A stretch of 51,381 bases of DNA from Psammoneis japonica (Eukaryota). The DNA lies in the NCBI GenBank assembly GCA_008632985.1, contig QPGO01000030.1, forward strand, positions 619,135 to 670,515, in the 5' to 3' direction. The stretch's first letter is position 1. Every line of letters begins with the position of its first letter. The notes beneath the pieces were generated by a model. That model worked only from the letters and a program-made list of their open reading frames with translations. It made no database searches and was not told where the DNA came from. Both the position numbers and the translations under genes were made by a program. This document shows positions 897-21,241 of the stretch, piece after piece.

Positions 897-1959
897 CTCC
901 CTGCTTGGCTACTTGACGTCCGGTGGTCGGTGGATGTTATTCTACCTTGGCATTCCGCACTCCAAAACCCCAAATTGCGGTACAATTCTACGTGTCTCTA
1001 GTAATGGACGACGGCAAGACGCAATTTCAAAGAGGAGCTAGCTGCCTGAAGGTGTACAAGGAGAAGACTGATGAAACAGATGATGACCATTGGACTGCTC
1101 TTGAAGGAGTGGACGAGTGTGACACCACGCTTGCATTGAAAAAGCAGGAAGAAGCTGGAGAGGAGCGCGATCCAAGCAGCCTTGAAGAACACATGGGCGG
1201 ACTGGCTCGGAAAGAAGACAATGCAGGGGGGTTGCGATGAGGGTTTGGGAATGGTGGCGTGTTCACCATGAGATGCATTTGTCCATGTCTGAAGCTGCAC
1301 ATCCAGCTGGTGGTCCTCGTGCAACTTTCCAGTGCTTCAGTCAAGCAAGTGAGTTTTTTCTAAGCTCAACAAGCACGTTGTTGAGACAGCCCAGTGCAAC
1401 ACGTTGCACGATGCCACTTTGTTGTGCATCATCTTTTTTCTCATTTGCACAAGGGATGTGATGTCAATCAAGACCATTGGCGGTGCTGCAAGAGAAGCCC
1501 AGAGTCAAGAGAGCTCTTTCTCAGCTCGAGTGGGCTCGCACGATGCAATTTTGTTGTGTTGTTTTTTCTCATTGGCAGAAGGGGCATGATGCAGTGGCAA
1601 CACACAGTGCAGCAGCAATGTGATTGACATGGTGCAGCAGCAATGTGATGTGCCGGCAATGCAATGCAGCAAAATGCAATCAGGAAACAATGAACGGTGT
1701 CATTGCTGTGCCACTGGTGATGAAGCACCACTGCACCAAACCTGGCACTGCACCACGTGCACTCTACGCAGTGCGCACTCTGCGCAATGCATTGCCCACT
1801 CAGCTCACAGAAATTCCTGTTTTGCACACTGCGCAATGAGCCTGTGCCTGTGTGCACCACATGTGCAGCATGTGCCATTTGTGCAATGGTGTGGCGATGC
1901 AAAAAAATGTTCATTGCACGTGGGTTGTTTGAAGCTTCACTGGACGGCTGTGTCTCTTT

Positions 1960-4150
1960 GTCTGTGTGACCATGGAGAGAGCAGTGATGAGGTGTTTGGA
2001 TGCTGGAATGATGAACATCATTGTGTTTGTCAGTCTTAGAGAGAAGGACATTCACAATGTTCTTGGGCTTCATTTGGATGTTCATCACACTGGCAAACAC
2101 TGGCAAACCAATGCTTGGTGTGTGACACCATGCGAGTGGTGTCGCAAAATGCCCCACTGGCACACCATCTTTGTTGCCCACAACCTCTCTCCAATCAAGA
2201 ACTTGACAACAGCACTTGCTGCAGTCAACAAATGGCTTGGTGCAATGAGCAGAGAGTGCACAACATTGCACATCATGTCATCATCAACAATGTGTTCCAT
2301 CTTGCACTTGTTGTCTTTCTTCTTCTTGTGGTTTGTCACCCAACTCTCTCAATGAAAGCTGATGAAGTTGAGGACATGCCCGAGCAGTGTTTTTGTTCAT
2401 TTGGTTGGGCAAATCCTGACAGGCCAGCAATTTTCCTCCAGATCTTCNNNNNNNNNNNNNNNNNNNNNNNNNNNNNNNNNNNNNNNNNNNNNNNNNNNNN
2501 NNNNNNNNNNNNNNNNNNNNNNNNNNNNNNNNNNNNNNNNNNNNNNNNNNNNNNNNNNNNNNNNNNNNNNNNNNNNNNNNNNNNNNNNNNNNNNNNNNNN
2601 NNNNNNNNNNNNNNNNNNNNNNNNNNNNNNNNNNNNNNNNNNNNNNNNNNNNNNNNNNNNACATTGATGTCAAAGTCAAGCAAATTTTGAAATGGTTTGA
2701 TGAGAGAAAATGAAAGCACATGGCTGGCTCTTGTTGTTGCTTGCATCTTCATGTTTCATCTCTGATTTGTGTTTTTCTGTTTTTTAAAACAGCTTTGCAG
2801 AGACACTTGAACAACGCATTGACTGGCATCAACAACGATGACAACTTAGAAAGTCTTCTGTGCCAGTCCATTTAGATGCTCACACCAAGCAAAGATGCAT
2901 GTTCACCTGCTTCTCAAGCTTTGCCATGGCTGCTTTCTGAGGATGAGGCAGCCTCAATGAGGGCAGCTGCAGAGAAAAAGAAAGCCAGCAGGGCTGTTGA
3001 CCTTTCTTGAAGCAGCTGACAGAAAGTGCTCATTTGAATGACTTGGAGTTGATGAGAATTGGTGGTTGTTGGGTGACTGGGTGAGACCAGCCTGTGTTTT
3101 CTTGCAAGTTGAGCCCATTGCCTTGAGGCAAGAGAAGAGTTCAGGGGGGAGGAAAAGCACAGGTGGGCAGGTCTGTTTCATGTGAATCCAATGAGAGAGA
3201 CATGTGTTGTCAACTTTCCTGTCTCTGGGATGGGTTTGTTGACAAGAGTGCTCCAAAACTCAGCCACAGGATGCATGTGACCCAGCTTTTGGGTTTTGTG
3301 CAATGACACAACAACTGTCCACAAGCTTGGGGGGGGCAGTTCAGAGGTTGGTTGTCAACAACTTTGACTGCAGAGACAATTGGGCTCATGTGGTTCTGCT
3401 TGTTCAGAGTTGCAACGAGAAAGGGATGTTGTCTTGGGAGGGAGCTTGACAGCAAAAAGATGAAGGGCACATCTGTCACACACATCAAACAAGCTCCTTG
3501 GCCACTTTGGACATGCAAGAGGGCCCCAAGAGAAGGTTCTCAGCCTCCTGCTGCATGTGACTGAGCAACACATTGCAGCCAAAGATTGTCATTGACAGAT
3601 GTTAATTTTCAACAACACAGCAGAAATCCAGGCTTGCACCCTCATGGGGTTGCTCTTGTCAGGCATGGAAACAAGGGGGCTGAGTTGTTTGTGCATGGCT
3701 CCCAGTTTGAAAGGGAGCATGCACACAAAAAGCACAAAATCCAATCATTTGTCATTGAAACCACAGGCTCAGAGCCTGTGTTAAAGCCACATCATGCAAA
3801 ACATCTGAGATTCTCAACAGAAAAGAAGCCCAGCATTGTGACATGCACAGATTGAGTCAAACAATTGAAAGACAAAAGCAACTGGCATTCAAACATTGAG
3901 AGTTGATGACCTCAAAAAAATGGTGAGTGGTGGAATGGCCGGGAGTCCCAACAATGACTGAGGAAATTTGAAACTCAGCATGTTTTGCATGTGCACAAGA
4001 AGTGATTTGTGTGAAGTCTTGTCATCTTCAAAAGTCATTGGACACTGTTTTGTGTGCAAAGACCACTTGCAAATTTGGTCATTTTGAAAAGGGTCAGCCC
4101 AAAATCCTGACTTTGTCTCATTGTCTGTCTCCAGTCTGGTCGGGGTCAGG
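1960..4150 (+). mobile_element. Degenerate Helitron-like element, 3' part (Pif1 helicase C-terminus), copy L
   Basis: Fragments translate to LLKLCHGCFL (Pif1 LKLYxG), VLCNDTTTVHKLGG, NNFDCRDNWAHVVL and RVATRKG (helicase motifs V/VI). Homologous in inverted orientation to 9365-9471 plus 19078-20550. Confidence 0.7.
2448..2660. other. Assembly gap (N run)
   Basis: Run of N bases. Confidence 1.
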
Positions 4151-5629
4151 GCAGGGGTGGGGGGTGGGGTGGGAGACACAGACAGATTTGCTCTCATTCT
4201 TTTCAGCATTACATTGGTTCCTTGCCACGCAGTTTTTGTGTGTCTGAACTCCTTGCAAAAAAATGTGAGCACATCAGATTGTCAAGCAGATGCAGCGCTG
4301 AATTGAGTGGGCATGTTGAAAATGTGTGGCTGAAGAAAATTTTGGCACTGCTTTGTGACAGATCATTTCTTGCCTTTGGGAGCCAAGAGTCTGTCTGCTT
4401 GGCACTGTGACAACCACATGACACCTGGAGGTTGTTTTCTTGTGCTTTCATGTTTGCTTTTGGTTTGAGTCACACATGTGTGGAGGGAACTTTGTTTGTT
4501 TTTTCAAAGCCATTGTTGAAGACAATGCTGGCATGCTGCTCCTTTTCCAGCCACAGAGCCTTTGTGCCAGTGTTGCAACAACACATGGCAGATGTTCAGC
4601 TGTTAGAAACAAGAGCAATTTTCCTGATTTGTGTTTGGGTCACATGGCTGCAGGGATGGCAGTGCTGCAAGAACTTGCATGCCCCCAGGCAGGAAACAAA
4701 CGCAAATCTGCTGTTGCTCATCAATTGCAAGGGTTTTCCAGCCATGGCATCCAAGTGCTTGCAGGTGCAACACCAGAGTGTCAAGGGCTGGACATCTGAG
4801 TGTTGAACATCCAGGCATTGGGAAATGCTCATGACACAACATGGGAAAATGAATCTGAGTCAAGTGATGCGGCACAGAGAGGTGTTGCTGCACCTTTTTG
4901 GATGAGGCTCATGGCTGACAAGGTTGGTCCATGGCTGCACAATGGGCTTGCAGAGCACAGGCCTTGCAATGATGCCTTTGGTCAACTGTCATCTGAGCAA
5001 AGCCAGCAACAACAGTGCTGAGCACACATGGGGCAGCATCTGCCAGAAGTTTGTGTTTGTGGTGGCTGTTGCCACCTGCATTGCACAGGTGTCTCCACAT
5101 TGATGGTGGTGAATTGTGCGCTCCTCCTTCAGTCAACACTGGATTGAGCCAGCACTGGCAGGGTGAGCTTTGCTCTTTTCTGGGTTCATCACAAGCAGCG
5201 CCTAACTCAGGAACAGATTGCAGAGTCATTGAGAAATGCAAACATTTTTTGCCCACCTCGCAGCAGCACCAAAATGTGGCCCAAGCTGCGCTGAATGGCA
5301 GACATGGAAAACAGTCAGTCTGCTGCATGCACCCTGTGCCACACAGCATTTCATCAATGTGGCACACATTGCTGTCCAAAAATGCTGCACCAGTCAAAAG
5401 GCATTTTAATTTGCAGGCCCCATTTTGCCTTGATGACTTCTTTGGCACATTTGGCAGATTTTGTGTGATTTGTGCAGGAGGAAGCAATGAGTTGGCATGG
5501 TCAAAGAACACTCAATGCTGGCCAACAGAGGCTCAACACAATGATGCATGGCAGTCACAAATGGAAAAATCAAAAGGTGTTTTGGCGACTTGGTTGTTGC
5601 CCCCATTTGCTTCAGTGCAAATGACTTTG

Positions 5630-6046
5630 GCAAAAATTGGAGTTTGGCACACAGCTGTGGCATCATGTTGCTGCTCACTTGTTGGCTCTGCTTGAGGTGG
5701 TGTAAAAAAAAAGTGGTGCATCATTGAAAAGCACTCATTTAGCAGGCATCCTCACATTGTCACCCTTGGTTGTTGCAAAATTCTTGGCACATTTCTGGAG
5801 TGGTGCCTTGTTCCATGAAAATGTGCTGGGAATTTGGCACACAGCTGTGGCATCATTTCAATGTGTTGCTGCAGCCAATTTGGCTGTGCTTGAGAGGTGA
5901 GAAAACAAAAGTGATGCTGTCAAAGAGCCCTTGTTCTGCAGATGACATTGTCACCCTTGATTGTCAGAAAATTCTCAGTGCTTCTGGGGTGATGCCTTGC
6001 TTGAGCCATGAAAATGCACTTGGAGCTCGGCATGCAGCTGCAGCAC
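5630..6046. repeat. Diverged tandem duplication, ~190-bp unit, ~2.2 copies
   Basis: TTTGGCACACAGCTGTGGCATCAT at ~5643 and ~5833, with a third partial copy at ~6021; CATTGTCACCCTTG at ~5755 and ~5946; CCATGAAAATG at ~5813 and ~6006. Confidence 0.8.
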
Positions 6047-9000
6047 AGCAAGGGAGGTGGTCCAGTGGAATGAAATGATCAAAACAACAGCCCACAGAAG
6101 CTTGACACCAACCTTCTCACACACCAGACCCCAAATCTTGTCACCCAGTTGCTCCACCTTGTTCTGGGCTTGGCATTGACTTTTCTTCGAAAAGCATGCA
6201 TTTTCCTTGTTTTGCTCATGTCTGACACATTCTTGCTTGTCAAATCTCACTGCTGAGCACACTCAGGATTTTTCAGACATGCTTTTAAAATTGCCCGAGG
6301 AGCTGTTGTCACCCCCACCCCTGCTGTGCAACATGCACAGGGGAAAAGTTTTTTGACATTTGATGATTGTTGCTGCAGGCATGCTTGCACTCATGGTGAA
6401 AATCTCTGGGACAGAGACTTTCACAGACATGATGCTCCCATCCACAAGCATTTTATCTTCTCTGTTGACAGCCCTTTGCCATCACAGCCATGGGTGACAA
6501 AGAGCAGCTTTTGATCAAAAAGGTGGTGGGGTTCGCACAAGCCACATGGCGTGCAAAATGTTTTCTGTCTTTTGTGTGCAAAGGAGCTCTTGACATTGCA
6601 ACATTGTGGTGCAATGTTTGAAAGGATTTTCTGTGCCCACATTGCATGCTGATGCAAAACATCATTCTCATGTTTTTTCCACCCTGCACACAACACTCAT
6701 CTGTGCAGCACAACTTGCACAGATTGTTGAAAACAAGGCATCAAGCATCAGCCAAAATTCAGTTGGACAGGCTGTGTTGTCAATGTGAGCACTTTTTGCT
6801 GGTTTTTGATTTTTGCATCATGCAACAGTTTACAAAGATTTGGTGCATCTGCAAAGATGTTGCTGTTCTTCACTGTGCTGTGAACAACAAAACATGTTTG
6901 CACAAGTGCACAATTGTTTGCCACTCATGCACACCAGCTTTGGCAATGACAAATGATGTCATTTGTGTGCACTTCAATGTTGCTGCCAATGGCAGGCAAC
7001 ATCAGCCAGCACATGATTTTTTGGTGTTGTTTGCATTTTCTGCCAGGAACCCTTGGCTGCACTTCACCCTGTTTCACCTTGTTTCTTCTCCCACTGCTCT
7101 TGGCTTTTGTTCTCATTGAAGTGCCTCTTTCCAACTGGGAAGACTTGTGTCTCTTGCTGTTTCTTGTTCCCTCTCTTGTGCCATGTTGTTGTGGCATCAT
7201 CCCTCATTGCAGAAACAGAGAAAACTGACATCAACTTGTGTGGTTTGTGCAAGAGGGTGAGTGATTTGCAGTTTTCAGCATTCTCACCTCCAAGTTTTTC
7301 CCTTGCCAACCACACCAAGCCATTTCCTGCTGCCATGCCCATGAACTTTTTCTCCTTTTGATGAAGTCAGAAAAGCTGACTGTGAGCTGTGTGCTGTTTT
7401 CTCAATTGCTTTTGCATTTTTTGTGTTTTGTCTTGCCTTGTTTGCATTGTCCCATGTCCCTCCATTTGTTTCACAAGACCGTTGTTCCTTCTCATTTTCT
7501 GTCTTGCTGAAATCAAATCTTCAGCTCATGTTGCTTCCTGGGAAAACCTTTGTTTTGTCTCTTGTCTGTCTGTGTCTTTGCAAAAGCAGGAGTTTTCACC
7601 TTCAAGGGCATTGTGAATTTGTCAATCTTTGTGTTGCTTTGAATTGAATGACTTTTTCTCAATTGACAAAGGGCTTTTGTTGTGAGCAACAGTTGTTTGC
7701 CATTCCACAACTTTCACGTGTGCTTGGTGCTCCACTCTTTCTCCCTTTCTCTTGCTCAACATTTTTGCATTACAAGGTGCAACAATTCATTTTTGATCTT
7801 GTTTGGCATTTCCCATTCTTGCAAAGAACACTCTGCATGTTTTTTTGAATTTGCCGTTCAATGTTGAAATGGCTGTTTCCCAATGTGCCCTTGTCTCATG
7901 CTGCCAGAACATGAAACTGTCACCACCAACTCATGCCCCACAGCAAAACAGCAAGTTTGTTGCTGCTCTTTGGCATTGCCATTGTTTTTGTGGTGTGCTT
8001 GATTGTGAACCTTGCCACCCACAACCAAGAAAACAGCACCCAACCACAGGGTGATGGTTGCACATGCCACCAGACTCTCAATGACTCCAGCGCCATTTTG
8101 AGTCTTTCCCAGCAGCTCATCAAACATCTGTGGCTCAGTTGATGATCCCCTCTGATCTGCTCATTAAAGCCTGTTGCCATTGTCTGCACTTGGCTGGCTT
8201 TTTGTGTCATTTTAGTTGTGCAGCATCAGAAAAAACTGCAGGACAAATTTGCTCAACTGAAGGATGGTGTGTGCAACAAATCCAACAAAAGGACGAGGCT
8301 GTTTGGAGCCAGGCAATCATGATGATCAAAATTCTCTCCAAGAGGAAGTTGAAAAGTTGAAAATGACAAGATCAAGAATGTGTTGACTCACCTTGGAGCT
8401 GTTGCCACAGATCAGATCTTGGCAGGCACTGCAGGAGCTGACTGTGCACATGATGGAAGGATGTGGTGCTGTTGCTCAAAGCCCACAGCATGTCTCATCG
8501 CATGTGCAAACATTTCAGAATGTGCACAGAAGGCAATGTCTGGGCTGTTTGCCAACCTCTCAAATTTGAAGCTCTCTTCTCCTTGGCACCAGTGCTTTGC
8601 AGGCAGTGCACCCAGTGCTGTGGAAATCTGAGTTGCAGTCAAGTTCATCATGTGTGCTGGCATGGTCCAAAAGGAAGTCATCATCAAATTCAGCATTTTT
8701 TCAGTGATGGCAGAAAGCCAGAGAGGACTGTGAGAATGACCATGGGCACCAAAGCTGCACCTCAAAGAAGAGCCTGGGTTCTCTTTGTTTTGGCTTTGTT
8801 GTTTTCTTTTTCAAAATCTGGGGGCTTTCCTCTTTGCTTTCATCAATTGCCAACACAAGGGCAAGCTGTGCAACTGCATCTTTTGCTTTTCCAGTCAAAT
8901 TCTCCCAGTCATTGCAAAACAGGAAAACAAACTGAAAGCACTGTGCTCCTTTGGCAGCACTCCTCCTGGAATGACATCTGGCAGGTTGCCAAGCACTGCT

Positions 9001-9367
9001 TGTGCAGAGCCCATCATTTCCAACAAAACCAAGTGCACAACGTTGCTCAAGATGACACAAAAGGAAATTGTTCGACATCAGCCAAGAACATTGGGGAAAA
9101 GAGGCATTTGGTGCAAACAAATGACATTTGTCAACTCTGACAATGACAAAGCCATGACATGTGAGTTGGTTTTCACCATTTCTTGCTTGCTCTTGGTGTG
9201 CACCTCATCAGATCTTTCACATTGCACACTTTTTGCACACACAACAACCACTGCAAAATGGCCCTGCATGTCTCTGGCCACAGCTTGGTTAAAATGAGAA
9301 ACAACACCAAACACCAGGAGGCAGCAAGAGTGATGTGGTGGTGTTGTGAACAAAATCAAAAAAACCA

Positions 9368-9388
9368 CTTGGCCCCAACTGGGCCAAG
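9368..9388 (-). other. Subterminal hairpin of Helitron copy R
   Basis: Perfect 8-bp stem CTTGGCCC-caact-GGGCCAAG located where homology between the two Helitron copies ends, followed on the minus strand by TGG and a T run. Confidence 0.6.
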
Positions 9389-9471
9389 GAGACAGATGGG
9401 CAGGCCCAAGATGAAGTCGGGGTTTGAGGCTGACCACTTTCAAAATGACCAAATTTGCAAGCAGTCTTTTT

Positions 9472-9619
9472 TGAACAATTTTGATTGCTTGTGCTTCAAG
9501 TTGAATGTGACCCTTGCAGGTGCCTGCCTCTGACTCATGTGTGTGCCAACTGTGATCTCTCCTTGGCTGCTCTCACAATTGTTCCAAGAGTGTCAAGCAT
9601 TGTCAAAGCAGATCTTGTG
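9472..9619 (+). repeat. Gypsy-1 5' LTR
   Basis: TGAACAATTTT...TGCTTCAAGTTGAA.GTGACCC...TTCCAAGA.TGTCAAG...GATCTTG shared with 18891-19077. Confidence 0.8.
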
Positions 9620-10029: not shown

Positions 10030-13000
10030 TTGCTCAAAGATGTAAAATTGATGCTGGAGTTTGATGATGGGTCAAAACTGTCTTGTTCTTGTTCTGTTCA
10101 CACCAGAGGGCATGGGGTTGAGGCATTGTTGCACGTGGAAGATCACTTTTTGTAAAGCAGCTCACCAGTCGCAGTGTGCCGCTGGCCTTGAACTTTTTGA
10201 TTATTTTGAAGATTGTTTGCATGATGTTGCCGAAGAGTGCATGCATGCATGATTTGACAAAGCAGCACAATCATTTTGTTTGCAATTCATGAAACCTGCT
10301 GCTTGGGATGCAACAAAAGTGTGTCTTCCAACTTGCAACAAACCACATTCAGCAGAGGCTGTTGTGCACGCAGATTGCATGGACACTTCATTTTGTTGTG
10401 CCAGCCGTTTGCTCAGAGCTGCTCCTGTCTTGTTGCAGCAAGAAACAAAGAACACACTGTTCCACACCTTCCCATTGCAGCGGCAGCAGCTCTGCATCCA
10501 AGTGGGCAAGTCTCTCATTGCAGATGCTGTCAAAGACATTCAGACACATGTGGAAAACAAGAAAGCATTTGCTGATGGCAAAAATGATTGGAAAAGGAGT
10601 GGCAAGAGCAGCAACAGCAGAAACAGGAACAAAAGCAGGCAAAAATGCAGTGGCTCTGGTGGAGGCAGTCATGAAAGAGGCCAAAAGCCTGGCCCCAATG
10701 ATCCTTGTCCAGCTCCGTGGCATCAAGGTTCACACACCACCTGGAGACAAAGTCACAACAATCCAGCCAGCCCCAATTGTTGAGGTTTTCAAGGTCAAGG
10801 TGGAGACCGTGGAGGCCAAGGCAACAGCTGTGGAGGCCCTGGAGAAACTTTGGAGGCTGTGGCAATGGAGGCTGTGGCAATGCCAGAGAACACTGTGGTG
10901 GCCATGGAGGCAGTCAAAGCAGCTGCCACCACAACCACAATTGCATTGACAACCAAGGCAGCAATGACGGGAATCATCACCAAGGCAGTGGCCAGCACCA
11001 CTGGGCAAGTCAAGGGCAGAGTGCATCTGAGAGCAATGCCAGACATTCTGAGACCCAAGGATGGGGTCCAAATGCTGCTCAAGCAGACAACATGAATGCT
11101 CAGGCTCAAAAAGCTCCTTGTGGTGAAGCACGCCATTTTGATCCAATTAGACAAGGCCCTCCAAATTGTGGAGGAGTGGGGAGGTGCTTGCCTGATGGAC
11201 AATGGTGCTGTCCTCAGCACAGTTGATTTCAAGAAGCCAGCAGCTTCAGAGCTGAATGTTCCCAGTCACCTGCATGTGTTGAAAGCAAAGAAAATTGTTT
11301 GGTTCTGAAGAATCTGTGAGCCATGAACATTCTTGTGATGAAAATTTGTTTGTTGGTTGTGTTGCCAAGAACCCATTGCATGATGAACTTGAAGATGCTG
11401 CAGTCAATTGCATGAGCAACAAGGAGAATGTGTTTGACCAAGACACACTTGATTTCAATGCTCCTCTTGGCAAGATGGGATCTCAAGTTTCTGACAGTGC
11501 CACAGTGCCAACAGTGCTCATGGTTGCTTGTGCCATCCAACAACATGAGGCACTCAAGTGCTCATTTGATTCAGGCAGTTTGCGTGCACTTGTCCATTCC
11601 AAGGTTTTGCCACCAGGAGCTGATCCATCAGATGCCAGCAGGAGCATTTCAATCCAGAAGATGGGTTGCCCTCAGCAACCCAGCCTTTTCAGAATTCAAC
11701 AAAACAAGATGAGTCAATGGAATTTCAGCTCATGTGTTTGATGCAACATGTGCCATGTCCCTGTGATGTCATTCTGGGGTGTGATTTTCTCTAGAAGACC
11801 AGTCTGAAACTCAACTGCAAGGCTGAAGCTCTTTGATGGCTGGGCTGCATGATGCCAATGAAGGGCACACTCAGCATTGGTGGAAGGCCTGCAATTTGTG
11901 CATGGCACTGGACCAGCTCAACAAGTTTGACAGAGAATGCAAAGATGAAGAAGACTGTCACCATGATGCCTGCAACAGCTGTGTTCTTGATGTCAAAGTG
12001 TGAAGCCACTAATGCCACAGAGGCAGTGGGCAGTGTTGATCATCTGACCAATGAAGAAAAGAAAAAGCTCAAAGCAGCATCAGTTGTGATGGCATGTTTG
12101 ATGGCAAACTTGGCCATTGTCCTCATGAAAATGTGCACTTGGATGCCAAAGAAAATGCCCTGCCTTGTCACTCAAAACCTTGTGCTGCTCCACAAGTTTG
12201 TCAGGAAGCATGCAAAAGGGAGCCAACCAAAGCATCTGGTGGATGTTGGAGTGCTGCAACCATGTGGGCCAACCAAGTGGTGGGTGACAGGTGCCTTTGT
12301 TGTTCCCAAGAAAGACCGCCAAGTGAGATGGGTGCTGGACTTCCACAAACTCAATGAGGTCCTCAAGAGGAAGATTTGTCCATCCCAAGCAATCCAAGAT
12401 GTTCCACAGTGCCAGGCTGGTCACAACAAGCATTTCACAAAACTTGACATTACCACGTTCTGCTGTGCTTTAGAATTGGACAGTGAGAGCAAAGATTTTG
12501 CTGCAATTGTTGCACCACACAGAAAATTTCAATGATGTTGGATGACTGTGGGACTCAAGCCAGCTCCAGATGTTGCTCAAGCTGCCGCTGAAAAGATTGT
12601 GCATGGCTTCAATGTTGAATCTTACATTGACAATGTTGGTGCATTTCTTGATGTTAATTTTGATGCTCACTCAACTCATTTGGGTGAAGTTCTCTGTTGC
12701 CTGCAGGAGAACAAACTCAAAGTTAACCTGCTCAAATGTGAGTGGAGTGTGCAAGAGACCAATTTCCTGGGGCATTGGCTGACACACCAGATGGAATCAA
12801 GCCATGGAAGAACAAGATTGAGGCTGTTCTGCAATTGCAGCTGCCCAAGATGATGAGTTGACTCCACTCCTTTCTTGGCACAGTGGCCCATTTTGCAACA
12901 TGTGGCCTTGCCATTTTCATGCTCTTGTTGTGCCTTTGGCAACCAACCCAACTGGCAAAGGTGCTTTTGAGTGGACAGATGATTGTCATCGTGCACTCCA

Positions 13001-13436
13001 GGAAATGAAGGTCATTGTGGCCAGCAAAGCACTGGTGGCACATGCTGACCACAACCAAACCTCTCATGTCTGGGCTGATTCTTCCAACTGTCAAATGGGT
13101 GTGGCTGAAATCCAAGATGGCAAGCCAGAGGCCAGAGGTGTGTTGGTCCAAAATGCCATCTAAAGCTCAGCATGACTGTTCAACAATTGAAAAAGAATTG
13201 CTTGCTGTGGCCACGTGTTTCAAAGAGTTTTTTGCACAATTTCACCTGGCATGGACACTTGACTGTTTTCATGGATCAAAAAAATCTCACCTTTCAAACT
13301 CTTGATTCTCAATGCATTCTCATGTGGTGTCTTTGCCTTGATGTTTTTGCTCCTTGGTTTGAGCATGTGGAAGCACAGAATGATGCACTGGCCAATTGCT
13401 TTTCTCATCTGCCACAGATGGATCTGCCTTTGGAAG
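10030..13436 (+). pseudogene. Gypsy-1 gag, protease, RT and RNase H (frameshifted)
   Basis: Gag knuckle DPCPAPWHQGSHTTW...NP; protease FDSGS (~11565); RT AFVVPKKD.QVRWVLDFHKLN and SYIDN (YxDD, 12623); RNase H WADSSNCQMG, CSTIEKELLAV, DQKNLTF and ALANCFSHLP. Confidence 0.9.
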
Positions 13437-14137
13437 TGCACTGTGCTTGAAGAATGAGTGTGAACAGAAGTGAAATAAATCACAAAAAGTGGAAAATTGT
13501 GAGATTGGACTTTGTTCTGTGATTTTGGGTTTCTCCAAAGGAGCTCTCAATGGCAGTGCCAAGACTGTTTGCACTGCTTTTGCAGACAAAAGGCCTTGCA
13601 GAGAATCTGATTGTGACAACAGATTGTCTGGACAGAGTCAGCATTGACATCTTGTGCATCAACATTGTCTGTCAATTGCACTTGTTCAGATCTGTGTGAC
13701 TGATCTGTCCTTTGCACGCGCTCGCAATTGTGGCACGATTGACAAATGTGGCAATGCAGCGTCAAACAATTGCAGAGTTTTTCACAACAATCAGATTGCT
13801 GTCAGTCAATTGCAGGCAGCACCACTGCACAGCAGCAATTGGTTGCTTGCAATCATGAAGGAATTGCACGGTCTGTTGAGCTGATTGCAAACTGAGCCAT
13901 TTCAATGATTTTGGCTAAAAAAGAGCTTGAATTTTGACTGCAATCAATTGCAACAGCTGACTGTGATTGCAGCCTTAGCTCTTTTCCAACAATGAGCTCA
14001 TTGCAATTGAGTTTGCAACAGTGATTGCAACCAAAGTGGGGCCAATTGCAGTCGATCCCAGCAACTTGTTATGATGCTGCATCAACACATGATTGTGGGT
14101 GTGTGTGTTTCTTTTCTGCATGACAATGCATGTTGCA
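13437..14137 (-). repeat. Gypsy-2 3' LTR (contains MITE)
   Basis: Matches 17171-17503 over 13437-13756; PPT-like GGGGAGGCAAA on the minus strand at 14148-14138, immediately followed by TG. Inner boundary uncertain. Confidence 0.7.
13757..14079. mobile_element. 323-bp MITE, probably Tc1/mariner-type
   Basis: Imperfect TIRs CAGCGTCAAACAATTGC and (reverse complement) CAGCATCATAACAAGTTGC; absent from the other LTR; flanked by TG on the left and CA on the right, where a TA target duplication is expected. Confidence 0.65.
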
Positions 14138-17100
14138 TTTGCCTCCCCAGCTGCACATTGGAGTCATTCATCAAATGGCATCACACAATGGACATTGATG
14201 GTGTCAACAATGTTGCCACTTTTGAGAGTCTTTTTTCAGCAAAATTTTTTTCTTCCACTCTCTCTCTGTGTGTGGAGTGCATTGAGCATTCTCTTGAGTG
14301 TTGCTCTCATTGCAATTTCTTGTTTTTGTTTCTGGACAAACTTCCAGTCAGCAATGTGTCAAGTGTCAAGCATCATGTCTGTGTTGAAGACAAGTTGTCC
14401 CAACGCAGCCGGCATGGCAGTGTGACGTGCAGAAGGTGTTGCAAAGGCTGCTGCTGACAGCATTCCAGCAAGCGCATCTTCTGTGTCCAGTGGTGCATTT
14501 TGTGGGTCAAATGCACACAGCATGTTGCGGCCCAGTGCTTGATGCACATGTTCCATTGCAGCTCTGGCTTGTGAATTTTGTGCAGTTGTGGGCTCACATT
14601 TGATGCCATGATCATCTTGAACCATGTTTTGGAGTTGGTGTTTGGTGAGCTCGCTTTCACATGATCACAGGCAACTGACAATGGCCAACAAGGATGTCTG
14701 CTCAACCATGTCCTTTCCATCAGTCCAGCAGCAGTTGTGGATTCTTCATTTGGAATGTCCATGACTTCAAACCATCCAATTGCTGGGTCAATCAAAGTCA
14801 AACACTTCAGGACCAGGGGTTTCTTTCTTGCCTTTTGACACATCTTGTGTGGTCCAATTGGATCCACACATGGTCTTTCCCATGCCACTGATTCTGTGCA
14901 CTCAGGAGGCAAATGTCCACATTTCTTTTGTTTCTTCTTTTTTAATTTTTGGCACGTCTCACACTTGGACATGCATTTTTGCACTTTTTCATCATGCAGG
15001 GCAGACTGCAACAGAGGTGTTGTGAGATTGTTTCTTCAGCTCTGTTCATGCCAGGGTGCAGAAGTTGCGCACAGCACCAATCTGTTGCCACTTTTTGCAA
15101 GGTCTTTGGAATGATGAGATTTCATCCTTGTGACATGTGATCATCAACTGGTCTTGCTCACCTCCACAAAAAGTCTTTGCACACAACATGTTGTGTCTGA
15201 CAATTTGGAGAGAATGTCATTGTCCCTTTTTGTTCGCAAGAGAACTTTGTGTGTCAATGGAAAGACATTGTTGCAGGATTTGGGAGTTGCCTTCTCTGCC
15301 AATTCTTCAAAGCTGAGGTTTTCCATGGGCTCTGTTTTCTTCACAGCAGGTTGGCTGATTGAGTCTGCAATGATGTCGGCCTTGCCCTCAAGGCAAATCA
15401 TTTTGGGGCTGTGTTCTTCTGTTGTTAGATGCCAATGCATGACTCTGTCAGTTGCAAATTTCTTGTGAGTGAGATTTTTATGATCTGTGTGTGTCTTCAA
15501 CTGTTGGCCAATCAGGATGTTGCAGAACTCTTTAAGTTGTCAATGCAAGTCCTGACAAATTCCAAACCTGCCATTGGCTCACTCATGTGCACTTGAAAAA
15601 CATCCAGGGATTCGCAGATTCCCGCGGGGAGTTTGCAATGTCCACACTTGCCCTGTGGCATCACAATCATGTGCAAACATTGTGCATGTGGTGTCAACTC
15701 AATGTGGTGGCATCCCATGTTCAAATCAAGCAATGCTGTGCACATGGAGCCTTCTGGCTTCTGCAGCATGTCCTGAATTTTGGGAAAAGGATGCAGAGTG
15801 AGCATTGGTTGCTTGCTCAGCTGACAACAAAAGTCAGACAAGAACCAAACTTGGCCATTTTGTCAGGTTGAACAAAGGTTGAGCTGCTCCCCAAGAAAGT
15901 GTTCATGTGAGCAATGACCGCTGGACCCCAGTGTGCATTGCCTTTGCCCCATTTCCAGCTTTCCTGACATCCAGTGATGTGCGTGACTCCTTGACAGGAG
16001 CCAGTCATTCCTCAGAATCACTGCAAGTCATTTTTTCAAATTGATGGTTTTCCTCACTGAGGGTGTCAGAGCCTGAATCTTTGGCTTGGCACTTCTCATC
16101 TTTCATCAGGAAACTTGGCTTGAGGGTTTTCTGAAATGCTTGAGCAACCACAATGTTCAAGTCTCCCTTTTGTGAGGCTTTTTTTGTGTCACAATGAGAC
16201 CACATGCAATTGCTGTTTGAACAGTGCCTTTTCAGGTCTGCTTCAAAATTCTCACAGCATTCCTTTGCTGGTCTTTTAAGCACCCAGCATTTGTCTGCAT
16301 TGTGTGTGGTCTTTTCACAACAACTGCACCACTTGTTGAATCAGAATGTTTGGCACCAGATTGAAAACCATGTTTGGGACCATGATGGGATCTGTCCTTG
16401 GTTTTGGAACCAGGCTTGATGCTGGGATCACCCTTGACATGAATTTGATCAAAGATGTCCTTTGCAACCTCCATGTGCTCCAAAAACTCCACCAACTTGT
16501 CAAAGGAGAGATCAAGAATTTCAAAACCTCCTTGGAGAGTGGACTGACATCATCATCATCATCCAGATTCTGGTTTGGCTCAAAACAAGGACAGCACTTG
16601 AAGTCTTTGTTTGCTTCTTGGGCCCAAGCAGCAATTTCTTGGATCTTGGCCTTCATGGAGTCTGGCTTCTTCAGATTGCATCGCTGATGATGCTCCTGAT
16701 TTTGAAGTGTGTTCTTTGGAAAGAAATGGTTAGAGAGGTGATGCACCCAGTGGGCATTTTTGAAGGCTCCATTGTCATCTTTGGAGCTGGCATTTGCCAC
16801 CTTGTTTCAAAAACTTGGAGAGTGTCTCCCTGCAACAACGTGCACATCATGCGGAACTTGTTGGACTGATCTTGAATGTTCTGCCCAACTGAGACCTTCT
16901 GACAGTTCTTGAGGAACTCAGTGCACTTTTGAGCTCCCTGCTTGTTGCACTGCTTGACATTGGTCATGTGGGTGTGGCTCTTTTTATCTCCAGGATAGAA
17001 ACATTGCTCCATTTTGAGGCACTGGCTTGGTTTGAGCGTCTTTGGCTTGGAAATTGACTCCAATGGCACAGGTGCAATTTTCCCCTGCTTGACAGAAGAC

Positions 17101-17170
17101 TTGCCATTAGTTGCATGAGGCAAAAGCTTCATTTTTGTGTTTTCACCTTTTCTGTGGTGTGCTGGCACAA

Positions 17171-17503
17171 TGCACTGTGCTTGAAAAACAAGTGCAAATG
17201 AAAGCAAAGTGAATCACAAAAAGTGGAAAATTGTGAGATCAGATTTTGTTCTGTGATTTTGGGTTTCTCTGAAGGAGTTCTCAATGGCCTGGACTGTTTG
17301 TGCTGCTTCTGCAGACGAAAGACCTTGCTGAGAATTTGATTGCAACAACAGATTGTCTGGACATGATTGGCACTGACATCTTGTGTGGCAACATCATCTG
17401 TTGATTGTGTTTGCAATTTTTGACATCCAGTCAGATCTGTGTGACCACTGATCTGTCCTTTGCACACATCCATGATTGTGGCACAATTGACAAATGCAAT
17501 GAT
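17171..17503 (-). repeat. Gypsy-2 5' LTR
   Basis: Direct repeat of 13437-13756; gag ATG lies ~40 bp downstream on the minus strand. Confidence 0.85.
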
Positions 17504-17504
17504 G

Positions 17505-18760
17505 GAAGAGTTTGAGCCCAGGAAGCAAGTGCAAGGGCAAGATTGTCAATTTTGAAAAGTTGAGCATGCCAGAGAAGACCATCCATTTTGAAAAGTTGAG
17601 CACACCAGAGCCAGTGCAGGAAGATGAGGTGGATGGTGGTGCTGGTCTTTTTGAGTGCTGTCAGCACATGCCAGCTGACTCATCTGCTGAGACCAGTGCT
17701 TCTCGTTCTGTTCTTAAATGATCCACCAGAGTTGTTTGAATGTTTCTTGAATCACAATTGGCCAAGTTTCAAGGAGATGGCAAACCTGACTGAAAGGTTG
17801 TGATTGCAGCAGTTCTGGTTTGAGGACCAGACAGCTGAGCCAGCAGAGACAGGTGCATCCCACAAACTTTTGACATGAAAATTGTGAACAACTGTCCTTT
17901 GATTTGTCATTGTGCACAAGTGAATGACCCACCTGGTGTGTGGAAGATTGTGCTCCCACTGCTTGTTGCTTGATGTTGTCTCATGGTGCCATTGTGTGCT
18001 TGGGCACTGTGGGATTGTGCACTTGTCTGAGAGCATCTGCACTCACTTTCATCATCCTGATTTGCTCTGTTGCTGCAACTCACTTGCACATGTTGCCTGA
18101 CAATGCCACAGGCAACTTGGACCTGGCTGTGTGAAGTTGCAGCTCAAGATGCAGAGATGAAGCTGCTCACTTGCATTGACGCTGTTGCTGGATTGACTGA
18201 ACTGGTGCAAACTGAAAGCAAAACTTCTCAACATGTTTCTGACAAGTTTCAAAATCTCTGGTTGTCTCACATCCCAGACTGAACCATTGTGTGCATGACA
18301 ATGGAGGAGAATTCATTGGTTGTGTGTTTCAGATGTTTCTGAATCAAGCAAGCATGGCAGATGTGTGCCAGCTGCATTGCACAATCCTCAAGCCAACTTT
18401 GTTTGCAAGAGAATGCATCAAACATCAAACAGTGGCTGACATTTTGTGAGCTGTGCTTGTTGCCAACAGAGCACCAGTTTGGATCTGCCAACAGTGGCAG
18501 ATTTGGCAGCAATTTGAGCCAGCTGTCAAGCACTGATCAACAAGTGTCTTTGGCATTGGATTTTGAAGCATCAATCCTTTGATTGTCAAGTTGGGCAAGA
18601 TGTTCTGCTCAAGTCTGTTGACCCTGCCAAACTGGAGGCTTGAGCATTTGGCTCATTTTGGATGGCACAAGTCCATGTCAATGGGGCTGTCTCAGCACTG
18701 TCTCGGCACTGCACATTGTTGAGCAGATTGACACTCATTGAGTGGCACCATGTCAAAGCT
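17505..18760 (+). pseudogene. Gypsy-1 integrase (resumes after Gypsy-2)
   Basis: KGKIVNFEKL linker; WCHCVLGHCG zinc-finger part; core LTCIDAV..LTELV...KTSQHV..KF.NLWLS, CVHDNGGEFIG and NPQAN.VC.RMHQ; C-terminal QVHVNG. Confidence 0.85.
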
Positions 18761-18890
18761 TGGGGTTTTCTTCCCAATGTCTGGGTTTCCCTTTGCTCGT
18801 GGTTGAGTTCAAAATTGATGAGATGAATCATGGCACACAGCAGCTCCCAGTTCCTTTCACCATGGGTGCTGCTGGAAGGAGGGGGAAGAG

Positions 18891-19077
18891 TGAACAATTT
18901 TCACAACTCATGCTTCAAGTTGAAAGTGACCCCTCCTCTGACATGTGCAAATTGACTGATGCACTGGATGTTTGAGACAGTCATTGCTTGGGAAAGTTTG
19001 CTCCTGCAATCTCTCCTCAGTTGGTTTTTCTCACAATCATTCCAAGAATGTCAAGTCTTGTCAAGCTGGATCTTGCA
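18891..19077 (+). repeat. Gypsy-1 3' LTR
   Basis: Starts TG directly after the 17-nt polypurine tract GGAAGGAGGGGGAAGAG, ends CA, and matches 9472-9619. Confidence 0.85.
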
Positions 19078-21241
19078 TTTTTACACAAAATGGGGTCTCC
19101 AATGACTTTTGAAGGCTTCAAGATTCAATCTAAATTGCTGCACAAACAAACACAGAACATGCCAATTTTCAATGCAGCTGACTCCTGGCCAGCCAATTTG
19201 CCATTTTTTCATTTTAATTAAAAGGTTGCTTGTTTTAAATGCTTGAACAATGCCAGTTGCTTTTGTCTTTCAGTTGTTCACCCCAGTCTGTGCACATGAT
19301 TTGGCAACTCTTTCCACTGAGAGACTGATGATGGATTTTTGGATTTTGTGCTTTTTGTGCACACGCTTGCTTCATTTCAACCCAGGGATCATGTGCAAAC
19401 AAAGCAACCCCCTTGTTTCTGTGCCTGTCAAGGACAATCACATGACACAAGCCTGGATCATTGCTGCAGTGTTGAACTCAATGTCCAATGATGATGACAA
19501 TCTTTGGTCACTGCACCTTGTGCAGTTGTTTCCAGCAGGTGCCTTGGAGCCCTTTTGTGCCCCTGAAGTGGCCAAGGAATTTGTTCAGTCCCAGCAACAT
19601 GCCCTTCATTTTCCTGCCATCAAGCTGCTTTCCAAGACAAAGTCCCTTTCTTGTTGTCACTCTGGACAGAACCACACAAACCAAATTGTCTCTGCAGCCA
19701 AAGTTGTTGACAACTGGGCTCTCAATTGTCCCTCCCTGGAGCCTGTGTGTGGTTGTTGCATTGTTGCACAAAACTGGGAACTGAGTCATCTGCATCCTCT
19801 GGTTGATTCTTTGAGTGCTCTTGTTGTTGATGAAGCCCATGATCAGAGGAACAGGAAAATTGACAACACACATCTCTCTCCGCAGAGCCACATGTGAAAT
19901 GGACTTCCCACCCTGCCTTTTCAGATGAAAAAAGCCTCCTCTTTGTGTGCAAATGACCGACACTTCAGTGAATGACATCACTCAGCTTGTGGTTGGATTG
20001 CTGACAGATCAAGGTTTTTGACTGTCTCCCAAATGTTGCCATGAGAGCCAGTGTTGATGATGGTGATGATCTGAAGAAAAATGGCTGGCCTGTCAGGACC
20101 AATCCAATCACAATGGTGAAAACACCACTGTGTCACATCCTCAACTTTGTCAGTTTGTCAAAAATTGGGCTGCAAAGCACAAAGAAGACAACAAGTGCAA
20201 GACAGAGCATGATGTTTGCTTGTGATGATGAGTTGTGCAACATTGTGCACTCTCTGCCCATTGCACCCAACACCATTTGCAGACTGCAAGCACCATCATC
20301 AAGTTGATCAGAGAGGTGCGTGATGAAGATGATGCTGATCAGACATTTTCTTGCAGCACTCACCACACAGATGTGCAGCCAAGTCCTGGTTTGCTGGTGA
20401 TGAACATCATCAAAACAAAGCCCAAGAGCAGTGCAGATGTCCTTCTCTCTGAGACTGGCAACTGTGTTGTTGTTGCCAATCATTGAAGCATGAAACATTT
20501 TGTCCCAACTCTTTGTTTGTGAAGACAATGAGAAACAGCCTTTCAACAAAGTGTCAGCACATCAACGAAGCTCCTCCATTTTGTGGCAATTTTCTCCTGA
20601 GTCAGCCGCCAACAATCATCTGCATTGTCATGTCAAGAAAGATGTGCCGTGGCACTGATGCCACCACTGTGTCGTCATCATGAAAGTCCTGGAGGCATTG
20701 TGCATCGCACAAACTTTTGAATGCTGAGCTGCTGGTGGGGGCAACTGCCATGATTTCAGCATTGTCACACTTGAAATTGCACACAGTGCGCAGAATCATG
20801 CACGAGTTTCTGCTGGCATGCCAAAAATGAACTTGACAAAGCAAGCTGTGTCCTTGTGTCCAGAGTTGTCCAAAAGTTGTCCATGTCTGGGTTTTTCCTG
20901 GAAACAACTCTGCAGCACGATCGACGCTGGAAGAGGAGGCCTCCAAAATGTGAGGTTTTGCAAGGGGAAAAAGCCAAAGTGCGCACTTAGAATCAGAGGT
21001 AATTTTTGCCACCGACGGATTCAGCAATTTTGAAGCTCGTTTCTACTCTCCACTCTAGCTAGCTGCTAGCTAGAGCTAGCTACCGGCCAGCTGGCAGTGG
21101 TGGCTACAGCAGGTAGAGTGGGGCTTCGATTTGCGCGCGCGCTCGACATCGCGCGCGAGGGACACCAATAACGTCTGGCCGACTAACCGGCAAAATATTA
21201 TGATCAGAAACAAAAAATCTCACCCACCGCCCACCGCCACC

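Follow-up and report, generated by a model that had tools for sequence, protein, structure and literature searches.

Near-complete, flank-dependent loss of TA steps from transposon DNA in a diatom-like genome suggests an A-to-G mutator

The window, by which we mean the whole 51,381-bp stretch of DNA that was analysed, consists of ordinary genes set beside transposon DNA depleted in both TA and CG. Observed/expected (o/e) dinucleotide ratios delimit a first depleted block (block 1) at 1050-20999, which includes a 213-N gap at 2448-2660 and whose edges are sharp at 250-bp resolution (1 TA in 20750-20999 vs 14 in 21000-21249). Block 1 contains the frameshifted and hypermutated pol of a Gypsy element, Gypsy-1, on the plus strand. 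Its 5′ part (protease/RT/RNase H; 11484-13434) was found with 13 homologues as tblastn queries, among them P0122 (a 1120-aa RT-RNaseH-integrase protein), and gives weak Pfam matches to RVT_1 and RT_RNaseH_2; its 3′ part (integrase; 17729-18736, plus strand), matched by tblastn with P0122 residues 715-1111, resumes beyond a second element nested within the first. This second element, Gypsy-2 (13435-17504, minus strand; pol at about 14287-15946 by minus-frame tblastn matches), is flanked by direct LTRs at 13435-13756 and 17169-17504, identified by alignment to each other. An unclassified repeat is present in two copies inverted relative to each other, A (1901-3989) and B (19151-20577), which a transition-tolerant alignment shows to be 67-71% identical, with 47+25 CA/TG double mismatches. 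The genic DNA at 21001-42000, our control, has Pfam matches to a proteasome subunit, a kinase, EMC7, symplekin, Rit1 and others (TA o/e 0.31-0.77, CG o/e 0.42-1.31); the best matches of the Rit1 ORF are diatom proteins, 47% identical. Amid this DNA, and with normal sequence on either side, lies a 1-kb depleted island at 23500-24499 (2 TA per kb, CG o/e 0.08-0.38, CA+TG raised). A transposase-like ORF (SLDDDK...SDRGYW...GTVRR) occupies 42061-43332 on the plus strand; it has 246 homologues at E<=0.001 and matched no family in Pfam. Block 2, depleted in TA (o/e 0-0.15) and CG (o/e 0.06-0.49), extends from 43750 to the window end at 51381 and includes a fragment of a DDE_3 (Tc1/mariner-type) transposase at 48916-49359 (plus strand; PF13358, E=3.3e-9). 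Depleted DNA houses the Gypsy elements, DDE_3 and the transposase-like ORF, and its edges lie no more than 250 bp from normal genes.

Within 1050-20999, the per-kb o/e is 0.00-0.08 for TA and 0.04-0.47 for CG, with CA at 1.73-2.53 and TG at 1.59-2.29. AT, AA and TT are near expectation, TA being the only dinucleotide lost apart from a separate loss of CG, and depleted and genic DNA have equal GC content, which supports the proposal of the first-pass annotation that a sequence-specific mutational process, rather than drift or GC-biased conversion, has been at work. The TA loss is real mutation: conserved tyrosines in the two Gypsy pols and the transposase-like ORF became Cys or His. Where the homologue consensus of the two pols is Tyr (46 columns), the window has Cys 14 times, His 10 times, Trp four times and Tyr once, while the transposase-like ORF has no Tyr in 424 aa and reads Cys (7), His (3), Phe (1) and Ala (1) at 12 columns that are Tyr-rich in its homologues. 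On the coding strand, former Tyr columns of the pols and the ORF have 26 TG-type and 14 CA-type codons, and both strands have been targeted. The two LTRs of Gypsy-2 align over 317 columns, of which 257 are identical; they differ by 56 transitions and 4 transversions, among which are 16 CA/TG double mismatches, and the changes were therefore made in DNA after insertion. One tyrosine, which the first-pass annotation had recognised as the surviving YxDD tyrosine of the Gypsy-1 RT, is indeed kept as TAC behind a T at 12623, in a column with Tyr in 10/13 homologues. According to translation and homologue alignment, the box (12623-12634, plus strand) now reads YIDN, its second Asp having become Asn through a CpG change (C|GAT to C|AAT).

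The loss of CG follows a course of its own. Homologue columns of the Gypsy pols record changes of Arg to Cys, His, Gln or Trp, and all 4 of the 4 single-contig differences between the window and the sequencing run's own contigs are CpG transitions. The dependence of CpG loss on flanking bases is only about 4-fold, vs about 100-fold for TA. The stretch at 42-43.7 kb has a TA o/e of 0.12-0.22 but a CG o/e of 0.62-1.07, and the transposase-like ORF retains Arg in 6/6 consensus columns; TA loss is therefore independent of CpG decay. Decay driven by 5mC shares with the depleted blocks the loss of CG to TG and CA but cannot remove TA, and we rejected it as the sole cause, since it accounts for CG loss only and 42-43.7 kb lost TA without losing CG.

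Between 1300 and 19300 there are 52 TAs where about 715 would be expected at genic density: 16 TTAA, 12 TTAG, 6 TTAC, 5 TTAT, 6 CTAA, 3 GTAA and one each of ATAA, CTAC, CTAG and ATAG. The first-pass annotation had described nearly all remaining TAs as having a 5′ T or a 3′ A, and 49/52 do; the exceptions are exactly the three that it named, CTAC (TA at 1765), CTAG (11792) and ATAG (16996), and its example sites (3602/3603, 4209/4210 and 5703) are correct within one base. The enrichment is far beyond chance. The share of TTAN/NTAA is 333/834 in genic DNA at 21001-42000 (Fisher odds ratio 24.6, p=9.7e-16 vs the depleted block) and 771/1837 in eight unmutated metagenome relatives of one transposon (Fisher p=3.4e-15), the TA-loss signature being present in 0/8 of these related loci; a first-order Markov expectation inside the depleted block itself is 0.56 (binomial p=1.1e-9). 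The same bias, also claimed for 42-43.6 kb, holds for 15/20 TAs in 42001-44000 (p=0.002) and for 19/27 remaining TAs in 44001-51381 (p=0.002). Enrichment is not significant in 1001-2447 (3/6 TAs) or in 23001-25000 (24/51 TAs), half of the latter being normal DNA. When NTAN tetramers are counted in depleted and genic DNA, normalised survival (depleted/genic per kb) is graded across an about 100-fold range, from 0.67 for TTAA through 0.30 for TTAG/CTAA, 0.09 for TTAC/GTAA and 0.06 for TTAT/ATAA to 0.03 or less for each of the six other classes. The claimed TTA/TAA bias stands, because normalised survival in these contexts exceeds that of all other classes.

From this bias the first-pass annotation had derived a strand-symmetric target, V-TA-B, reflecting enzymatic specificity. 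The idea of a sequence-specific mutational process holds, but the symmetric tetramer gives way to a per-strand rule that fits better. About 90% of TTAB and VTAA sites have themselves gone, converted only to TTGB and VCAA. Tetramer bookkeeping that converts TTAB to TTGB and VTAA to VCAA gives chi2 1.6 against 33.8 for a symmetric split, and with a second baseline 11.0 against 84.7, the half-site version still being rejected there (p=0.004); the ancestral NTAN frequencies in these comparisons are proxies, taken from host genes and from distant unmutated relatives from other organisms rather than from reconstructed element ancestors. In unprotected contexts, 815 TA+CG were lost and 814 TG+CA gained. 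Tyr codons behind T became TG 11 times and CA twice, those behind other bases 15 and 12 times, a polarised test of directionality that is weak alone (Fisher p=0.09). The base at +2 also has an effect: TAGA survives better than TAGB (p=1e-5) and TACA better than TACB (p=1e-6), and the exceptions at 1765, 11792 and 16996 all carry TCTA/TAGA. If a target A counts as protected when followed by another A at +1 or +2, both strands are protected in 36 of the 52 survivors, one strand in 16 and neither in 0, compared with 123, 431 and 280 of the genic TAs, which corresponds to survivals of 0.34, 0.043 and 0. Multiplicative protection between strands predicts, by arithmetic on these class counts, 1.3 unprotected survivors, and 0 were seen. 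In Poisson fits to half-sites, four parameters beat one (p=9e-26) and 16 beat four (p=1.6e-10), revealing dependence on T at -1, on +1 and on +2; TACG is among the fast half-sites, as are TATT, TACT and TATC, and the 3′ preference runs T, C > G >> A. The second baseline gave this ranking too, as did each block taken by itself. Judged from these patterns, a rule by which the A of TA would become G on each strand, about five times more slowly with A at +1 or +2, describes the data better than V-TA-B. On duplex DNA, A-centred and T-centred wordings of such a rule are formally equivalent.

The best explanation as a whole, to which we assign a probability of about 60%, is a genome defence in which a transposon-confined, flank-dependent A>G mutator acts by adenine deamination. 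Such a mutator would act on chromosomal DNA, restricted to transposons, and turn the A of each T-A step into G, hitting each strand separately, hence TA to TG or CA. Its rate would be set by three bases around the target on the same strand, T at -1 being required and A at +1 or +2 imposing the slowing, so that TAC[B], TAT[B] and TAGG would be converted fastest and TAAA slowest. Exposure of the elements would be near saturating; given only a modest rate difference, the TAs that remain would therefore be those converted slowly on both strands (TTAA, TTAGA/TCTAA, TCTAGA) or on a single strand. Sites with protection on one strand would go via the other, unprotected one only (TTAB to TTGB, VTAA to VCAA). 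CpG decay to TpG/CpA would run independently, in parallel and more slowly, and GC content would be unchanged because both processes feed one CA/TG sink. At the level of sequence, we regard the pattern, its direction, its post-insertion timing, its action on two strands and its flank dependence as established, and this part of the explanation taken alone is highly probable.

Fungal RIP is a natural point of comparison, being likewise transition-only, dinucleotide-specific, DNA-level and post-insertion, and likewise ruining transposons and leaving sharp compositional blocks. RIP, however, changes C to T, chiefly at CpA, creating TpA, whereas in the window TpA is destroyed and CpA/TpG are made (A:T>G:C), the opposite polarity. 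RIP itself is ruled out, as TpA is almost abolished, CpA is doubled and the direction is given by Tyr>Cys/His. The nearest precedent comes from Bigelowiella natans, whose TpA-only hypermutation is described in a 2026 preprint as A>G/T>C changes in the integrated viral DNA of mutation-accumulation lines (Mettrop et al., bioRxiv 10.64898/2026.01.13.699255). There, too, TpA alone is hit, with TpG or CpA as products by strand, the action is regional and directed at DNA that is foreign or mobile, and TpA depletion with CpA+TpG enrichment results in the long term; the window likewise has TpA changed to TpG/CpA on both strands in mobile DNA beside a normal genome. Reverse transcriptase and DDE domains are reported to be enriched among TpA-depleted CDS of B. 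natans. The two cases also differ. B. natans is a chlorarachniophyte (Rhizaria) and the window diatom-like; its main targets are given as giant-virus and virophage insertions, in which TpA is still 3.3% and 9.2%, whereas those in the window are LTR retrotransposons and DNA transposons with TA o/e down to about 0.03. Unlike in B. natans, TA loss in the window is accompanied by CpG decay. Events in the window are inferred only, whereas those in B. natans arise de novo, in some lineages at about 1e-7 to 1e-6 per site per generation according to the preprint, whose main text makes no mention of flank, context or trinucleotide and whose authors favour adenine deamination (10.64898/2026.01.13.699255).

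Our leading guess for the enzyme, as in the proposal made for B. natans, is a polynucleotide adenine deaminase of the TadA/ADAT type, although we would rate it at somewhat below even odds. Natural TadA/ADAT act on tRNA loops, whereas the process in the window accepts many +1/+2 combinations and disfavours only A; its 3′ preference also differs from that of strict TadA (C then G) and of ADAR (3′ G). On the other hand, TadA/ADAT and the DNA adenine editors derived from them convert A to I, read as G, and their natural substrates have U at -1. SaTadA and EcTadA are described as reading U(-1)A(0)C(+1)G(+2) (PMC10586758). These three flank positions are also the ones with an effect in the window, where TACG belongs to the fastest half-sites. 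More tentatively, and with the odds clearly against it, diatom-like stramenopiles and chlorarachniophytes might share a RIP-like defence of opposite polarity, in which a TadA/ADAT-derived DNA adenine deaminase directed against transposons and integrated viruses recognises T(-1), +1 and +2 while the DNA is transiently single-stranded. If so, it would erase TA, and thereby every Tyr codon and TAA/TAG stop, until A-flanked TAs alone remain. The flanks of remaining TAs would then be the sequence fingerprint of a DNA-editing defence hitherto reported, as far as the sources cited here go, in only one other alga, and would provide both the specificity of the enzyme and a genome-wide diagnostic index.

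Of the alternatives, the strongest, though unlikely, is that the same pattern stems from T-centred chemistry: a TET/JBP-type thymine dioxygenase would make 5hmU/5fU, which is mispaired or mis-repaired to C, and a T one or two bases before the target T (-1 or -2) would slow the reaction. To our knowledge, no thymine modification is known in diatoms. All sequence evidence fits this reading equally well, and duplex DNA cannot separate it from the A-centred rule. Dinoflagellate 5hmU is described as replacing T preferentially in TA and TC dinucleotides, and as being enriched on transposons and silencing them, a preference and a target like those in the window (PMC11572971). It is, however, an epigenetic mark of another lineage and is not known to be mutagenic. 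Since 5hmU pairs with A, a further step would be required for mutagenicity, and the preference of the B. natans authors (10.64898/2026.01.13.699255) also speaks against it.

Somewhat less likely still, the remaining TAs may be newly made, by a C>T process with 5′-TC preference (TCA to TTA; on the other strand TGA to TAA) acting after the old TAs were erased, in which case the TTA/TAA bias would reflect that later process rather than the TA mutator. Some re-creation of TA must occur, as 18 of the 56 transitions in the LTR pair lie outside TA/CG, and creation from TCA only gives a fair fit to the split of the 49 in-context TAs (TTAA 18.0 predicted, 16 seen; chi2 21.5, p=0.0015). Yet this model is wrong for TTAG and ATAA, of which it predicts 4.2 and 6.4 where there are 12 and 1, and leaves the protection of TAGA/TACA unexplained, and context-blind re-creation would put only 0.49-0.50 of TAs in context, the actual share being 0.94 (p=4e-12). 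In addition, the tyrosine at 12623 and homologue-matching ATA-Ile and GTA-Val codons in the ORF look retained. The non-sink class TCAB+VTGA gained what CpG decay alone predicts (190 against 217), so there has been no large TCA drain, and the LTR-pair transitions outside TA/CG are mostly C/T before T, not TCA.

Much weaker is the possibility that ADAR-like editing of transposon RNA was followed by reverse transcription, which fixed A>G in new copies. ADAR prefers a 3′ G, and the 3′ preference observed here is the opposite. A 5′ U preference does agree with T-A, as the discussion of the preprint notes (10.64898/2026.01.13.699255), and coding strands have slightly more A>G than T>C (26 against 14). 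However, the LTRs of a single insertion have come to differ by 56 transitions since it integrated, T>C is frequent on the sense strand (14 Tyr>His/Gln), and the DNA-transposon-like ORF and non-coding repeats are affected equally; any pre-integration change confined to the sense strand is ruled out by the LTR divergence, the sense T>C and the DNA-transposon-like ORF. Least credible of all is that the pattern is an artefact of assembly or base calling, or that the elements are natively unusual in composition, without mutation, for although the data comprise one 51-kb window of one assembly and the only sequencing run containing the stretch is possibly that assembly's own source, Logan's separate assembly of the run gives pieces of 0.6-5 kb with 0-2 differences at a depth of about 70, and codon-level Tyr>Cys/His and Arg>Cys/His/Gln relative to homologues, sharp edges beside normal genes and the paired CA/TG divergence of the LTRs all point to mutation.

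Two blocks of the window, which is eukaryotic DNA, at ~1.05–21.0 kb and 42.0–51.4 kb, are compositionally sharply unlike the genic middle (21–42 kb), which carries genes for a proteasome subunit, a protein kinase, EMC7, symplekin and Rit1. The closest relatives of the Rit1 ORF are diatom proteins (Cylindrotheca, Thalassiosira, Cyclotella, Nitzschia; 47% identity), and Cylindrotheca is also matched by the Gypsy RT fragment. Per-kb observed/expected (o/e) ratios in block 1, the first of the two, are 0.00–0.08 for TA, 0.04–0.47 for CG, 1.73–2.53 for CA and 1.59–2.29 for TG, with AT, AA and TT near expectation and GC content unchanged (0.43–0.50, except in the bin with a gap); genic bins have 0.31–0.77 for TA and 0.42–1.31 for CG. 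The block ends sharply: a single TA is found in 20750–20999 versus 14 in 21000–21249. The full signature, depleted in TA and CG and rich in CA and TG, recurs in a 1-kb island (23500–24499) surrounded by normal genic DNA and directly upstream of an unmutated ORF (24485–25228) with a weak GIY-YIG match. The island may be a solo LTR or a small element. The region at 37.2–39.2 kb was rejected as a target of the mutator, as its TA is low but its CG and CA+TG are normal. Tandem units of ~180 bp (84–91% identity) at 38343–38902, inside the CG-rich, TA-poor ORF region 37275–39296, do not have raised CA+TG and are therefore unconnected with the mutator.

Judged by protein homologues, the TA depletion is the product of mutation running from TA to TG/CA. 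Only three repeat pairs were found in the window (self-BLAST plus purine/pyrimidine-coded seeds), and because two-copy alignments cannot polarise changes, we relied on protein homologues and on tetramer bookkeeping. With thirteen Gypsy pol homologues, the pol of the LTR retrotransposon Gypsy-1 (+) was mapped to 11484–13434, continuing at 17729–18736, and is split by a second, nested element, Gypsy-2 (−), at 13435–17504. In 46 Gypsy pol columns with at least three aligned homologues and at least 60% Tyr (a few duplicated by overlapping frames), the window has Cys 14, His 10, Trp 4, Phe 5, others 12 and Tyr only once. This sole retained Tyr is the TAC codon at 12623, preceded by T, in a YIDN box, just as the first-pass annotation had noticed for the RT YxDD motif. 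Of the 49 consensus Arg columns, 6 still have Arg, while Cys stands in 10, Gln in 7, His in 7, Trp in 2 and other residues in the rest, which reflects CpG decay. The transposase-like ORF at 42061–43332 (+) contains no Tyr among its 424 residues, and 12 Tyr-rich columns have become Cys (7), His (3), Phe (1) and Ala (1); Arg, on the other hand, is kept in 6/6 consensus columns, and o/e is 0.12–0.22 for TA and 0.62–1.07 for CG. The TA process thus operates without, and ahead of, CpG decay. The ORF is still open because TAA and TAG stops have been erased as well. Its family has 246 homologues at E ≤ 0.001; its motifs (SLDDDK, SDRGYW, GTVRR) are DDE-transposase-like, and a Pfam search of 7 homologues returned no family.

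Between 1300 and 19300, 52 TAs remain, compared with ~715 expected at genic density (39.7 per kb). The first-pass annotation held that nearly all of them are preceded by T or followed by A, and 49 of the 52 are; the exceptions are exactly the three it named, CTAC at 1765, CTAG at 11792 and ATAG at 16996 (TCTAC, TCTAGA and ATAGA in wider context). The corresponding share of TTAN/NTAA is 333/834 in genic DNA (Fisher p=9.7e-16) and 771/1837 in eight unmutated metagenome relatives of the transposase-like ORF (p=3.4e-15), while a first-order Markov model of the block itself expects 0.56 (binomial p=1.1e-9). The bias that had been extended to 42–43.6 kb is borne out by 15/20 TAs at 42–44 kb (p=0.002) and continues at 44–51.4 kb (19/27, p=0.002); in the small edge stretch 1001–2447 it is not significant (3/6). 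Normalisation to genic counts leaves the TTA/TAA contexts as the best survivors, and equal survival of all NTAN contexts, the outcome that would speak against the bias, is not what is seen: survival is 0.67 for TTAA, 0.30 for TTAG/CTAA, 0.09 for TTAC/GTAA, 0.06 for TTAT/ATAA and ≤0.03 for the six other classes, in an identical order with the second, metagenome baseline.

Enzyme-like specificity, proposed earlier together with a symmetric V-TA-B target, is supported by these data, but the symmetric tetramer is not: a rule read separately on each strand, T-A-(not A at +1 or +2), fits the direction of loss, the +2 effect and the distribution of survivors better. Relative to genic DNA, 225 TTAB+VTAA sites are gone, as are 435 CGs flanked alike, while TTGB+VCAA gained 420 and TCAB+VTGA only 190. 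A directional model, in which T behind T and A before A are not converted, predicts 1103/651 for the observed 1080/624 (chi2 1.6), versus 990/764 for a symmetric split (chi2 33.8). On the metagenome baseline, chi2 is 11.0 for the directional model, an imperfect fit (p=0.004), and 84.7 for the symmetric one. At unprotected VTAB, the loss of 815 TA+CG is balanced by a gain of 814 TG+CA. Polarised Tyr codons agree in direction, though weakly (Fisher p=0.09): after T they became TG 11 times and CA twice, with one TA left, and after non-T TG 15 and CA 12 times.

The dependence on the two bases 3′ of A emerges from a Poisson model in which TA survival is the product of two per-strand terms, one for each half-site (T, the target A and bases +1 and +2). 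The fit is bettered by the first 3′ base (p=9e-26) and by the second too (p=1.6e-10). Relative half-site survival, in the two fits that include block 1, is 1 for TAAA, 0.4–0.8 for TAGA, 0.4–0.7 for TAAB, 0.2–0.4 for TACA, 0.1–0.25 for TAGY and ≤0.12 for the rest; in the smaller, noisier fit of 42–51.4 kb alone, TATG reaches 0.22 and TATA 0.19. The ranking is stable across the two baselines and each block alone, and the +2 effect is evident for TAGA vs TAGB (p=1e-5) and TACA vs TACB (p=1e-6). If half-sites with A at +1 or +2 are called slow, 36 of the 52 survivors have two slow half-sites, 16 have one and 0 have neither, as against 123/431/280 genic TAs, giving length-scaled survivals of 0.34, 0.043 and 0. 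Survival multiplies across the strands (0.58 × 0.58 and 0.58 × 0.074), with 1.3 unprotected survivors predicted and 0 seen, and the values imply a rate difference of only about five-fold, magnified by saturation. Strand asymmetries were also noted. Survivors on coding strands are TTAB 5 vs VTAA 17; half-protected survivors on the coding strands of 13757–17168 (−) and 42061–43332 (+) are VTAA 7 and 7, TTAB 1 and 1; and Cys/Trp (TG) has taken the place of Tyr 26 times, His/Gln (CA) 14 times. This hints at a faster attack on the non-template strand, though the A-richness of coding strands (AA 417 vs TT 223 in Gypsy-2) confounds the comparison.

Taken together, TA is removed by transitions on both strands, within transposons and after their insertion, under the influence of positions −1, +1 and +2 of each strand. 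Such a process might consist of adenine deamination by a polynucleotide deaminase, with the resulting inosine read as G. TadA is reported to read U(−1)A(0)C(+1)G(+2) (PMC10586758); the same positions matter in the window and TACG is among the fastest half-sites, but TATT, TACT and TATC match its speed, which leaves the fit loose. A T-centred chemistry, such as TET/JBP oxidation of T in TA, is a real rival, since on duplex DNA T-centred and A-centred rules are formally equivalent, and dinoflagellate transposons are reported to bear 5hmU in place of T in TA (PMC11572971). Whichever base is attacked, the nearest counterpart is the TpA-directed A:T>G:C hypermutation that a 2026 preprint was the first to describe, from one alga, Bigelowiella natans (bioRxiv 10.64898/2026.01.13.699255). 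According to that preprint, 231/302 nuclear mutations in B. natans mutation-accumulation lines fell in two integrated viral regions, 230 of these 231 were A>G or T>C, every one of those on TpA, and TpA-depleted CDS were enriched in RT and DDE domains; its authors proposed an ADAT2-like deaminase, and flanking bases go unmentioned in the main text. The signature in the window is the same, but it differs from what is described for B. natans in belonging to a diatom-like lineage, affecting ordinary transposons, having reached saturation and being accompanied by CpG decay. Fungal RIP is a functional analogue of opposite polarity.

The kind of process is therefore one very recently described, and the new information is the flank fingerprint. 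Since the same TpA signature, at saturation and on ordinary transposons, occurs in a supergroup lineage different from that of B. natans, the process is suggested to be widespread and old. For diatoms, full-text literature searches turned up no account of TpA hypermutation, and none of the eight metagenome relatives of the transposase-like ORF (24–34% identity, TA o/e 0.52–0.74), used solely as an unmutated baseline, is TA-depleted. The flank rule supplies a testable fingerprint by which candidate enzymes, whether deaminases or thymine modifiers, could be recognised biochemically (T at −1, about five-fold slower with A at +1 or +2, strands independent) and, in the manner of RIP indices, a composition index that could locate such regions in further genomes. 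It also carries a warning for annotation: once Tyr codons and the stops TAA and TAG have been lost, spurious ORFs run long and Pfam models fail. The window has 58 listed stop-free stretches of at least 150 aa, and Pfam recognised a transposon domain in only 3 of 144 block 1 ORFs, all weak RT/RNase H matches.

Some of the remaining TAs need not be survivors. Of the 56 transitions between the Gypsy-2 LTRs, 18 lie outside TA/CG steps; such background transitions must have re-made some TAs from the abundant CA and TG. Were the in-context TAs made by a TCA-specific C>T process, their split would be reproduced moderately (chi2 21.5, p=0.0015), but TTAG, ATAA and the +2 effect would not, the bookkeeping lends no support (non-sink gain 190 vs 217 expected from CpG alone), and the codons at 12623, 42572, 42722 and 42938 look retained. 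Context-blind re-creation is rejected, as it predicts 49–50% in TTAN/NTAA vs the observed 94% (p=4e-12). Whether the TAs are retained or re-made, their bias reports what the mutator spares, and zero unprotected TAs among the expected re-creations suggests that the mutator was at work through most of the time the elements have been resident.

The timing can be read from the LTRs of Gypsy-2, as both LTRs of a retrotransposon are identical when it integrates. Those at 13435–13756 and 17169–17504 share 257 identities in 317 columns; 56 of the differences are transitions and 4 are transversions, and neighbouring transitions pair up into 16 CA/TG double mismatches (32 transitions in all), as would be expected where copies independently resolve an ancestral TA or CG. 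An inverted pair of unclassified repeats (1901–3989 vs 19151–20577) has 72 further CA/TG doubles. The process thus acts in the chromosome after insertion, and this divergence excludes editing of RNA ahead of reverse transcription as its main cause. The common sense-strand T>C (14 Tyr>His/Gln) and the involvement of a DNA-transposon-like ORF and non-coding repeats are likewise consistent with action on DNA. Minor transitions in the LTR pair are C/T before T (6) and A/G after A (3), equivalent to CT/TT = AG/AA steps. The Gypsy-2 LTR family (13252–13915, 17236–17899) is very abundant in the one DNA run that contains the stretch: summed contig depth at individual positions is as high as 37,000, vs ~70 in unique sequence.

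Among the sequencing runs listed, one DNA run, possibly the source of the assembly, contains the window, and no RNA run has the stretch. The Logan assembly of that run, which is therefore no independent check, reproduces 0.6–5 kb pieces at depth ~70 with 0–2 differences. All four listed single-contig differences (5290, 12652, 20706, 21138) are CpG<->TpG/CpA transitions, which suggests that CpG decay is ongoing or allelic in and beside the depleted block. At 80% likeness, 1495 pieces of the run's contigs differ mostly by transitions (A>G 156, T>C 173, C>T 164, G>A 146; transversions 17–43 each). Surviving CpGs at 2661–21000 depend mildly on their flanks, at 0.17 of genic density for GCGC, 0.15 for ACGC/GCGT and 0.04 for TCGA.
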